A stretch of 5,849 nt of DNA from a virus (taxonomy: Duplodnaviria; Heunggongvirae; Uroviricota; Caudoviricetes). A model generated the notes under the pieces. That model had not been told where the DNA came from. It saw nothing but the letters and a program-made list of their open reading frames with translations, and made no database searches. The translations under genes were made by a program, and so were the position numbers. How positions within the stretch are numbered: position 1 is the stretch's first letter; every line of letters begins with the position of its first letter. Shown piece by piece: positions 147 through 4,310 of this stretch. Location: IMG/VR virus record IMGVR_UViG_2541047926_000003, positions 1 through 5,849 of that record; one strand, given 5' to 3'.

Positions 147-196
147 ATGCGGCACTCCTGGTTAAATTTCATTTTTCGCGGGTATAAAAAAACGAT

Positions 197-245
197 GGGG
201 CGGGCAGTCCGGAAGACGTCAGGTCACAGAGATTTGACCCGCCCC
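197..245. repeat. GC-rich inverted repeat GGGGCGGG (197-204) / CCCGCCCC (238-245) between the HNH and terminase genes; candidate cos element or intrinsic terminator
   Basis: Perfect 8-bp inverted repeat read directly; arms separated by 33 nt containing the palindromes GACGTC and TCCGGA. On the minus strand the 3' arm is followed 4 nt later by a run of seven T (A-run 186-192 on the + strand). Function is inferred from position only. Confidence 0.4.
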
Positions 246-271
246 TCCCCTCAGACAGTTGAGAGTTATTA

Positions 272-797: not shown

Positions 798-1346
798 ATG
801 TTTGATTTTACTCATTTTGAAGAGTTGACTTTAGCATCCCATCAACCCGATAGAATAATGACTATAGTTCGGTCCCAAGATGACATTGGTATCTATCTCC
901 GCACTCACCTTTTGATTGAACAAATCTTGGAAGCTTGGATTATCTGTGCCTCTGGTAACAGGGATTTCTTCAGCGGTTTTGGCGAAAATATCAACATGGA
1001 TTTTGCCATTAAAGCTCAGCTTGCGATGAACTATGGGATGAGCTCAGAGCTAAACAAATTTATTCGAAGGTTCAACAACTTCAGAAACAAACGTTCACAT
1101 CAAATTAACAACTCTGACATCACTAACAGTGAGATTGACTCCTTAACAAGTCTAATGGAGCACGGTTACCCTGATAGCTTGACCCCCATTAGAGATTTTA
1201 AGCTTGGGGTTTACGGAGCAGAAACTAGGGTTGTAAGTTTCACGGGATCCTCTACAAGCTTACGCGATAAGCTCATTATGTTATTCGCTATGTTTTCCAT
1301 GAGGGTACATTACGAAGCAAAATGCTTAAGCACGCCACAGAGCTAG
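798..1346 (+). CDS. Hypothetical protein (cargo gene A), 182 aa, with an R-N-x3-H motif suggestive of a HEPN-type RNase
   Basis: ATG at 798 with AAGGA (787-791) 6 nt upstream; TAG at 1344-1346. AT-rich codon usage unlike the flanking phage genes. Motif R96-N-K-R-S-H101 (nt 1083-1100) follows a predicted helix (ELNKFIRRFNNF). No family recognised from memory. Confidence 0.6.
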   Translation: MFDFTHFEELTLASHQPDRIMTIVRSQDDIGIYLRTHLLIEQILEAWIICASGNRDFFSGFGENINMDFAIKAQLAMNYGMSSELNKFIRRFNNFRNKRSHQINNSDITNSEIDSLTSLMEHGYPDSLTPIRDFKLGVYGAETRVVSFTGSSTSLRDKLIMLFAMFSMRVHYEAKCLSTPQS

Positions 1347-1424: not shown

Positions 1425-1985
1425 ATGATCCATACGGTACATTTTTTGACAGATGTTACAGTTGCCTCTGTAACTAATCTGATGGATGTCTGCTTAAAAG
1501 CAGTTTCAAATACTAATCAACCAGCAACAGAAATTAAGCTCTATATTTCCAGCAAAGGTGGAGATACAGTTTCAGGCTTTACTGCTTACAATTTTTTAAA
1601 GTCACTTGGTGTAAAGGTTACTACGCATAACCTCAGTAATGTTGAATCAATCGCAAACGTGATCTATATGGCTGGAGAAGTGCGAACTGCCAACCCACTT
1701 TCTCGCTTCCTTCTTCACCCACTGCATTGGGGGTTCGCCGCACCCAGCGCAGATCACCTACGATTGAGAGAATGGGCTTCATGCCTCGATGACGATCTAA
1801 ATCGATTTATTCAAATCATGGATATTGAAACAAAAAAGAAAAATCCAAGTGAGATTGCTGATTGGAAGGATTTGATCACTTCGGCAACCATCCTTCATCC
1901 CGGAAGGGCCTCCGAGTTGGGAATTGTTCATCAAGTCGAGGCTGCAACCATACCCACGGAATCGATCCGCTGGTGGGTACTTTAA
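1425..1985 (+). CDS. ClpP-like (S14/ClpP-fold) serine protease homologue (cargo gene B), 186 aa, N-terminally truncated relative to canonical ClpP
   Basis: ATG at 1425 with GAGGAG (1414-1419) 5 nt upstream; TAA at 1983-1985. Blocks align, from memory, with E. coli ClpP: LYISSKGGDTVSGFTAY vs LYINSPGGVITAGMSIY; THNLSNVESIANVIYMAG vs TICMGQAASMGAFLLTAG; SRFLLHPL vs SRVMIHQP. Candidate triad Ser75 (nt 1647-1649), His98 (1716-1718), Asp149 (1869-1871) has spacings 23 and 51, close to ClpP Ser97/His122/Asp171 (25 and 49). Confidence 0.75.
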   Translation: MIHTVHFLTDVTVASVTNLMDVCLKAVSNTNQPATEIKLYISSKGGDTVSGFTAYNFLKSLGVKVTTHNLSNVESIANVIYMAGEVRTANPLSRFLLHPLHWGFAAPSADHLRLREWASCLDDDLNRFIQIMDIETKKKNPSEIADWKDLITSATILHPGRASELGIVHQVEAATIPTESIRWWVL

Positions 1986-3439: not shown

Positions 3440-3561
3440 AACAGAGGGTTAAGCAATATCAACTCAACAGCTGAAGACACCCTGGCTGGGGTAGGTTGGA
3501 AGGCTACTCACCGTCCAGAAACAGAAAAGCCCAAAGTTTTAAACCTCGGGCTTGAATTTGG

Positions 3562-3620: not shown

Positions 3621-4310
3621 TTAATCCAGTTTTGCAATACTTTGCTGTGAAAATGTCGTCTTTTGTTTTGAACGTGTTTTCGTTAAAAGCAATAAAGCTT
3701 GGCTATCAAGCTGTAGAAAAATGTGCTTCATTGCAACCCAGCGTTCAGTAAATGTCTCAGACCAGTTTTTTGATGTCACTCCCACCAGTGATGCCAGCTC
3801 CTGGTATTCATAGGTCTTACGCCCTGCCAGCTCGTTCTTCACATCCTGTGCCGCCAGCCAGATCAACTTCTTTAAGCGTTCCAGTGTCTTACTGGCAATT
3901 TTTCTTGTACCTAACAGAGCCTTAAACTCGTTCCATGCCCACTGCGTTACGGCAACCTGATGCTCCCAGCGAACACTTTCGCTGTAACTCCACAGCAACC
4001 ACGCTTTCTGGTGTTCTTCGAGAGACAGAACCGCGCGGCGCCATGAAGATGTTGAGAACTCAACCTGGCTGACCAGTGCAATGGATGAACCTTTTGCGTA
4101 CGACTGCTTACCGGAAATCGGCGGATTATCCAGCGTAATCATCCTGCCAGTTACCTCATCCAGAATGCGCGGCTTCTTTCGTTTGTATGTACCAGTATCA
4201 AATTGAGCATGCTCCAGCCAGGCTTCAAGCTGGCCTTTCGTTACTCCGCTCAAATCAGCGGTAGCCACCATGAGTTGCTCGCGAACATACTGTAAATATT
4301 GGATATTCAT
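3621..4310 (-). CDS. Putative late antiterminator (Q-like protein)
   Basis: 229-aa ORF, ATG at 4310-4308 with GAAAGGAG 7 nt upstream. Lies between the rusA-ylcG block and the late promoter and lysis cassette, the position Q occupies in lambdoid phages. No similarity to lambda Q recalled; the family assignment is positional and needs a profile search. Confidence 0.55.
   Translation of the reverse strand: MNIQYLQYVREQLMVATADLSGVTKGQLEAWLEHAQFDTGTYKRKKPRILDEVTGRMITLDNPPISGKQSYAKGSSIALVSQVEFSTSSWRRAVLSLEEHQKAWLLWSYSESVRWEHQVAVTQWAWNEFKALLGTRKIASKTLERLKKLIWLAAQDVKNELAGRKTYEYQELASLVGVTSKNWSETFTERWVAMKHIFLQLDSQALLLLTKTRSKQKTTFSQQSIAKLD

Follow-up and report, generated by a model that had tools for sequence, protein, structure and literature searches.

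Between an HNH endonuclease gene and a terminase gene, the stretch of viral DNA analysed here (5,849 nt; the window) carries a GC-rich inverted repeat within positions 147–271. The initial annotation offered two readings of this interval, a prophage cos site or a strong terminator through which a Q-modified polymerase reads, and the question addressed here is which of the two it is and whether the repeat itself contributes to it.

The inverted repeat

The elements that drew attention to the interval are the following.
197–204: left arm of the inverted repeat, GGGGCGGG, 8 nt
238–245: right arm of the inverted repeat, CCCGCCCC, 8 nt
208–213: palindrome TCCGGA
215–220: palindrome GACGTC

Re-reading of the sequence located the arms, the internal palindromes and the minus-strand run of seven T exactly where the initial annotation had placed them. 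The two arms are 100% complementary and lie 33 nt apart, and the A7 run at 186–192, which reads as T7 on the minus strand, begins 4 nt beyond the stem. The repeat is nevertheless statistically weak and only marginally unusual: of 2000 dinucleotide-preserving shuffles of 147–271, 124 (6.2%) contained a perfect inverted repeat with arms of 8 nt or longer and no more than 60 nt between them, and the window holds five such 8-mer inverted repeats. The 63-nt hairpin, at −24.1 kcal/mol, folds better than its shuffles (z −3.0), and the entire 125-nt interval folds no better than shuffled sequence (z −0.8). Among related phages, the corresponding fold is also significant in phi644-2 (z about −3), while HK97 and phi467 lack a stable hairpin (z +1.05 and −0.69, respectively). 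Rfam covariance models gave zero matches at the gathering threshold across the whole window, and a structured RNA was rejected as a candidate on that absence.

Flanking genes and prophage context

Open reading frames and family matches bear out the location of the repeat between an HNH gene and a terminase gene (PF01844 on one side, a P27-type small terminase, TerS, on the other). The genes and signals of the late region are listed below.
5711–5256, minus strand: NinB-like gene
4869–4444, minus strand: RusA gene
4310–3621, minus strand: antiterminator Q gene
3311–2994, minus strand: holin gene
3007–2531, minus strand: endolysin-like ORF, with no Pfam match, annotated in E. coli LD91-1 as glycoside hydrolase family 24
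2547–2155, minus strand: Rz-like spanin gene
1425–1985, plus strand: insert gene 2, a 186-aa stand-alone ClpP-like serine protease (PF00574, E 2e-12)
798–1346, plus strand: insert gene 1, 182 aa, phrog_5483, with no Pfam, NCBIfam or PADLOC match
622–272, minus strand: HNH endonuclease gene, 116 aa (PF01844, E 5e-15; phrog_144, E 1e-44)
159–155, minus strand: AGGAG Shine-Dalgarno sequence of the small terminase gene
146–1, minus strand: beginning of the gene for the P27-family small terminase, with its ATG at 146–144 and a translation opening with MAGTAGRSGRRPKP; its remainder lies beyond the window

The late region of a lambdoid prophage occupies the window, with the minus strand as its phage-sense strand. 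Positions 1–2100 match a prophage in the chromosome of E. coli LD91-1 at 99.9% identity; in that prophage, TerS is followed by the large terminase (TerL), portal, HK97-family prohead protease and major capsid genes and by myovirus tail genes. At least 80% of this 2100-nt segment is present in only 15 of 5426 complete E. coli genomes, and part of it in 1157 of the 5426.

The HNH protein combines an N-terminal CxxxxC...CxxxH zinc ribbon with a C-terminal HNH domain and shares 41% identity over 46 aa with HK97 gp74 (E 3e-10). By this similarity it is a packaging accessory nuclease homologous to gp74. The full-length TerS orthologue of Shigella phage SfV matches PF05119 and TIGR01558 (sm_term_P27), each with E 2e-21. 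TerL itself lies beyond the window; its SfV counterpart is 26% identical to HK97 gp2 over 520 aa (E 4e-31), and both carry PF03354 and PF20441. As judged from these homologies, the succession of HNH, P27-type TerS and TerL genes is an HK97-type packaging module.

A separate observation concerns the two insert genes, which occupy 798–1985 against the direction of the late operon, between the Rz/Rz1 spanin genes and the HNH gene, with a hairpin at 2007–2024. The product of the second is nearest to ClpP-related head-maturation proteases. The pair resembles a moron and may be considered a candidate cassette for defence or exclusion.

Identification of the cos site

Comparison with phage records strongly favours the packaging reading. 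Megablast located the HNH–TerS junction in SfV, SfI, SfII, SfIV, ST64B and others, with several linear phage records ending within the interval. On rebuilt record junctions, the HNH/TerS intergenic DNA of the window is 100% identical to that of SfV and differs from that of SfI at a single base (A196 here, G in SfI). The SfI end has been mapped experimentally: run-off sequencing of SfI virion DNA against its prophage revealed 10 missing nucleotides, 5'-TGCCCGCCCC-3', which were read as the cohesive end (PMC3636060), and the cos of SfIV was reported to be the same (PMC3851460). Because the SfI decamer corresponds to 206→197 on the minus strand of the window, the left arm of the repeat is part of the cohesive end.
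206→197, minus (phage-sense) strand: 10-nt cohesive end 5'-TGCCCGCCCC-3', placed by the SfI-mapped end and homologous ends

Homologous positions in more distant phages agree with this placement. The GenBank record of phiP27 carries a 'cos-site' misc_feature, CGCCCGCCCC, at the homologous position (NC_003356, 21806–21815). The linear records of HK97, Edwardsiella EPP-1 and Burkholderia phi644-2 terminate at the homologous column, and that of Pseudomonas D3 ends at approximately the homologous position. For phi644-2, a ten-base 3' extension, CGCCCGCTTC, has been published (PMC2920897), and it falls at the position homologous to the cohesive end of the window. HK97 has a 10-nt 3' overhang (PMC9410871, PMC11331095). 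On this last point PMC9410871 contradicts itself, giving 10-nt 3' for HK97 in the legend of Figure 1 and 'lambda 10-nt 5' overhangs, HK97 12-nt 3' overhangs' in the Discussion; PMC11331095 and the present alignment are both consistent with the 10-nt 3' value.

Transfer from these relatives would give the prophage the same 3' polarity and set its exact nicks, on the phage-sense strand between 197 and 196 and on the other strand (the plus strand of the window) between 206 and 207. The SfI sequencing produced a gap and not an overlap, which we infer to be what 3' extensions give.

Record ends require some care in this group. The SfV and SfIV GenBank records are linearized at 214|213 (GACGTCT|TCCGGAC), 7 nt upstream of the SfI-mapped cohesive end, at a site where the sequence is identical to that of SfI. 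The SfII record opens directly behind the stop codon of the HNH gene, and that of ST64B starts 15 nt ahead of the terS ATG. Record ends are therefore unreliable markers of the physical ends in SfV-type phages.

Alignment to known cos regions, the check that the initial annotation had suggested, settles the question for cos, being gapless against the phiP27, HK97, phi644-2 and EPP-1 ends. We conclude that interval 162–250 is very probably where an SfV/SfI/phiP27-type temperate phage integrated in E. coli has its cos site. On the strength of these alignments, the cos reading is right and already described for SfV/SfI/P27-type phages, and the feature is an ordinary one.

Anatomy of the cos region

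The alignment of 13 diverged cos regions needs no gaps over a span that begins 50 nt before the cut and extends to about 40 nt beyond it. The AC immediately before the cohesive end (A49, C50) and a GCC core within it are invariant in this alignment, and the columns of an upstream G-run and of AAATC are invariant or nearly so. The subsites that we distinguish are listed in phage-sense order.
250→231, minus strand: G-rich box GGGGAGGGGCGGGTCAAATC, containing the right arm (238–245), conserved across the 13-phage alignment, HK97 and D3; candidate cos subsite
209–207, minus strand: GAC triplet directly 5' of the cohesive end, its AC invariant
192–186, minus strand: T7 tract, +5 to +11 after the cut, the A/T-rich part of the right side of cos
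183→162, minus strand: ACCCGCGAAAAATGAAATTTAA, +14 to +35, probable small-terminase recognition site (cosB-like), as suggested by its conservation with TerS type

The box stands at a fixed distance from the cut. From T237 of the box to position 206 there are 31 nt, and the T of TCAAATC lies exactly 31 nt from the first cohesive-end base in the window, phiP27, Kp ST101, phi467 and HK97; D3 carries a near-identical G-rich box upstream of its record end. A scan of viral contigs for GGNGGGGCGGGTCAAA returned at least 120 loci, with 78 unique downstream sequences among the matches listed. About 65 of these 78 have AC[CT]G 30–31 nt past the T of TCAAA, against a calculated chance expectation of roughly 1.6% at that spacing, a comparison to be read with the mutual relatedness of the sequences in mind. 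The box GGNGGGGCGGGTCAAA(T/A)C, fixed 30–31 nt upstream of AC|YG, was thus seen in HNH-associated cos phages of E. coli, Klebsiella, Edwardsiella, Pseudomonas and Burkholderia.

No prior description of the box was found in the literature searched, and one may already exist in the older HK97/HK022, SfV, phiP27 and D3 papers or in Kala 2014. With that reservation, a widely conserved G-box at fixed spacing is the sole element of this analysis that is mildly new. We tentatively consider, as a possibility with the odds somewhat against it, that the box could be a distinct, uncharacterized cos subsite of HNH-dependent phages, cosQ-like or serving as a TerL/HNH docking site, with the HNH enzyme nicking C(G/A)|GT and TerL the other strand.

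The sequence around the nicks is compatible with such a division of labour. At 206/207 the plus strand reads CA|GT (...GGCA|GTC), and HK97 and phiP27 have CG|GT (...GGCG|GTC) there. Cos-adjacent HNH nickases of Gram-positive phages show the specificity CG|GT, that is, AC^CG on the opposite strand (PMC3592412), and it has been suggested that TerL cuts one strand and the HNH protein the other (PMC11331095). By analogy, the 206/207 nick may be assigned to the HNH enzyme.

Downstream of the cut, conservation follows the small terminase. The T7 tract is replaced in relatives by AATTTTT, AAATTTTT or AATTTTTT. The motif CCGCGAAAAATGAAATTTAA is kept wherever a P27-type TerS of the 'M(A/P)G(T/V)AGRSG' kind follows, including in Edwardsiella EPP-1 and in phi644-2 of Burkholderia, a distantly related beta-proteobacterial host, and it is replaced in phi467 and F1055, both of which have different TerS N-termini. 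On this distribution, the left half of cos (box, spacing and AC|YG) appears common to lineages with homologous TerL and HNH proteins, and the right half appears to change with TerS type. As a related observation, phi467 and F1055 share the HNH gene, G-box and spacer with the window, and the resemblance is lost completely from the cohesive end onward (phi467) or from just beyond it (F1055). The comparison suggests a mosaic joint at cos, at which recombination would swap left and right halves as separate modules.

Alternative explanations

Whether the inverted repeat is functional in itself was assessed from conservation. Across the 13-region alignment, the eight proposed pairs gave 81.7% paired cells, compared with 81.0% in column shuffles, with no excess covariation. 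Among 32 representatives of diverged lineages, less than 80% identical downstream of the box, a perfect complement of the arm occurs in only one, the window's own. The box stays constant where the cohesive end differs (CCGCCGCCTCA, CGCCGCCTGA, CGCCGCCAAA, CGCCCGCTTC, CGCGCAATAG and CGAAGGGGTA). The repeat is probably incidental, arising because a G-rich box happens to stand close to a C-rich cohesive end, and the pattern of conservation suggests no role for it as such. The hairpin may have a lineage-specific structural role, given z of about −3 here and in phi644-2. The palindromes GACGTC and TCCGGA were rejected as functional sites, being missing in phiP27, Kp ST101, the L042-type, HK97 and EPP-1, where only the GAC beside the cut is kept.

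The alternative under which the repeat would matter is that the two inverted GGGGCGGG motifs, whose centres lie about four helical turns apart, are paired sites for a symmetric protein (a TerL or HNH dimer) that function in this lineage. Throughout the SfV/SfI/ST64B/phiP27 group the arms are perfect, several lineages repeat a GGCGG core in the box and in the cohesive-end complement, and in-register pairing (81.7%) exceeds that of registers slid by 1–3 columns (61–67%); that excess, however, is what a structure taken from the window itself would be expected to show. In HK97, the L042-type, phi644-2, EPP-1 and most box carriers, moreover, the cohesive ends are unrelated to the box, and lineages with the ends CGCGCAATAG, CGAAGGGGTA and CGTCGCCATA still keep the box, the spacing and AC|YG. 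We consider paired sites improbable and prefer an incidental repeat within a cos site.

A decayed remnant of a defective prophage, its packaging region devoid of present function, is less probable still. Many E. coli prophages of this type, e14 for example, are defective, and inducibility cannot be read from the window alone. Set against this, the cos interval is base for base that of SfV, a plaque-forming phage, the HNH and TerS reading frames are intact, and the packaging, head and tail module is uninterrupted in the closest genome (LD91-1).

Lowest in probability, and hardly to be credited, is the second reading of the initial annotation, in which the hairpin and the minus-strand T7 form an intrinsic terminator of the lysis/HNH transcript that Q-modified RNA polymerase reads through. 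In its favour are the phage-sense 8-bp stem composed entirely of G/C, followed 4 nt later by T7, the stability of the 63-nt RNA given above, and the fact that late transcription from the Q/pR' region has to pass here. The anatomy speaks against it: the element was not called by a consensus terminator scan, its loop measures 33 nt, and its U-run is offset from the stem by 4 nt, so that neither the loop of about 3–8 nt nor the immediate U-run of an intrinsic terminator is found. Conservation speaks against it as well, with neither a covarying stem nor a conserved U-run. The T-run is shorter and farther from the stem in relatives (CTCGAATTTTT in ST64B, GTCAAATTTTT in phiP27), the stem is broken without compensating change in HK97, phi467, Kp ST101 and EPP-1, the complement is retained in that single lineage of 32, and cos accounts for every conserved base. 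Better terminator candidates occur elsewhere in the window, at 3553–3527 and 3439–3423 (after Q) and at 2007–2024. On anatomy (loop, offset and scan) and on the absence of stem and U-run conservation, the terminator was rejected.

Of the two alternatives in the initial annotation, then, the cos site stands, on SfV identity, the SfI-mapped end and homologous ends, and the terminator falls, on the scan, covariation and lineage counts. In 14 of the 32 diverged lineages the cut is followed by TTTT, and nearly all of these lack a complementary upstream arm; T-rich tracts in lineages that lack the arm fit a DNA-level role on the TerS side of cos.

Upstream, a sigma-70-like promoter match at 3637–3609 (minus strand) overlaps the end of the Q gene and is followed, before the holin gene, by the two terminator-like sites at 3553–3527 and 3439–3423 (both minus strand), each a hairpin with a T-run. 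Segment 3637–3423 is most likely the pR'/tR'-type arrangement expected as the target of Q, and the Q-dependent terminator most likely lies there and not at 147–271.

Proposed packaging mechanism

In the mechanism that we propose for this cos site, the P27-type TerS, the HK97-type TerL and the adjacent HNH nuclease would cut the concatemer by staggered nicks, 197/196 on the phage-sense strand and 206/207 on the other, and so leave 10-nt 3' cohesive ends 5'-TGCCCGCCCC-3'. The left arm at 197–204 would be simply a G/C-rich cohesive end, and the right arm at 238–245 part of the separate conserved box GGGGAGGGGCGGGTCAAATC, 31 bp upstream of the cut. This box would probably position TerL or HNH, in a cosQ-like role, and the T7 tract together with ACCCGCGAAAAATGAAATTTAA would make up the TerS-side (cosB-like) half. 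We infer which protein binds which cos subsite; the identity to mapped cos sites and the conservation of the box, its spacing and the AC|YG context are read directly from the aligned sequences.

In terms of annotation, the assignment locates the packaging site, and with it the ends of the virion genome, for a prophage type that is present, at least partly, in 1157 of 5426 complete E. coli genomes. Where a GC-rich hairpin with a T-run stands between HNH and terS, cos is the annotation to give and a terminator is not. The division into left and right halves could also guide mutagenesis in the HK97 in-vitro packaging system, where the TerS site alone has been defined so far.

Comparison with known cos systems

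The likeness to lambda cos is one of functional logic, namely an upstream element for termination (cosQ), a cut and a downstream TerS-binding region, all before the small terminase gene. Lambda has 12-nt 5' ends, a dyad centred on the nicks, a gpA-type terminase and no HNH protein, whereas the ends here are, by homology, 10-nt 3' extensions, and SfV TerL matches only PF03354/PF20441. Searches of phage records returned no similarity to lambda cos. The initial annotation had likened the repeat to the partial dyad symmetry of lambda cosN, and this analogy fails in detail: the dyad centre lies at about 221, away from the nicks at 196/197 and 206/207, with one arm within the 10-nt cohesive end and the other in a separate upstream box. 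The nick-centred dyad and gpA-type terminase of a lambda-type cos are both absent. Two marks of an HK97/P27-type cos, location between HNH and TerS genes and a match to an experimentally mapped cohesive end, are present.

HK97 is closer. Its cohesive end occupies the homologous column (GAC|CGCCGCCAAA|G), its G-run and TCAAATC box stands exactly 31 nt upstream, an A/T tract and an ACCCG motif follow downstream, and its TerL and HNH proteins are homologous. It differs in having no inverted repeat, since its G-run (G9) and its cohesive end are not complementary. Cleavage of HK97 cos is stimulated by the HNH protein gp74 (PMC11331095, PMC9410871), and the HK97 TerS site at +15 to +29 has a C:G pair beside an A-tract (PMC11331095). 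In the window, ACCCGCGAAAAA (ACCCG, then A5) lies at +14 to +25, 4 nt nearer the cut than its HK97 counterpart, and its conservation goes along with P27-type TerS. By analogy this suggests a loose and weak likeness of the TerS site to that of HK97. HK97-like TerS binding by way of protein homology was rejected, as the P27-type TerS has no detectable similarity to gp1: BLASTP found none between SfV TerS and HK97 gp1, gp1 has no Pfam or NCBIfam match, and a PDB sequence search with SfV TerS came back empty. BLAST of the HK97 lineage returned near-identical sequences only, adding no information.

With phiP27 the window shares the G-box, the spacing, the GAC context and the downstream ACCCGCGAAA motif, and the cohesive end, CGCCCGCCCC, is one base different. 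The phiP27 spacer between box and cut is unlike that of the window and lacks GACGTC, and its T-run is AAATTTTT. Closest of all are SfV, SfI, SfII, SfIV and ST64B, in which cos has the same location between HNH and P27-type TerS genes and the same cohesive end, TGCCCGCCCC, with no substantial difference in cos. What sets the present prophage apart from these Shigella and Salmonella phages is that it resides in E. coli and carries the additional, oppositely oriented insert at 798–1985.
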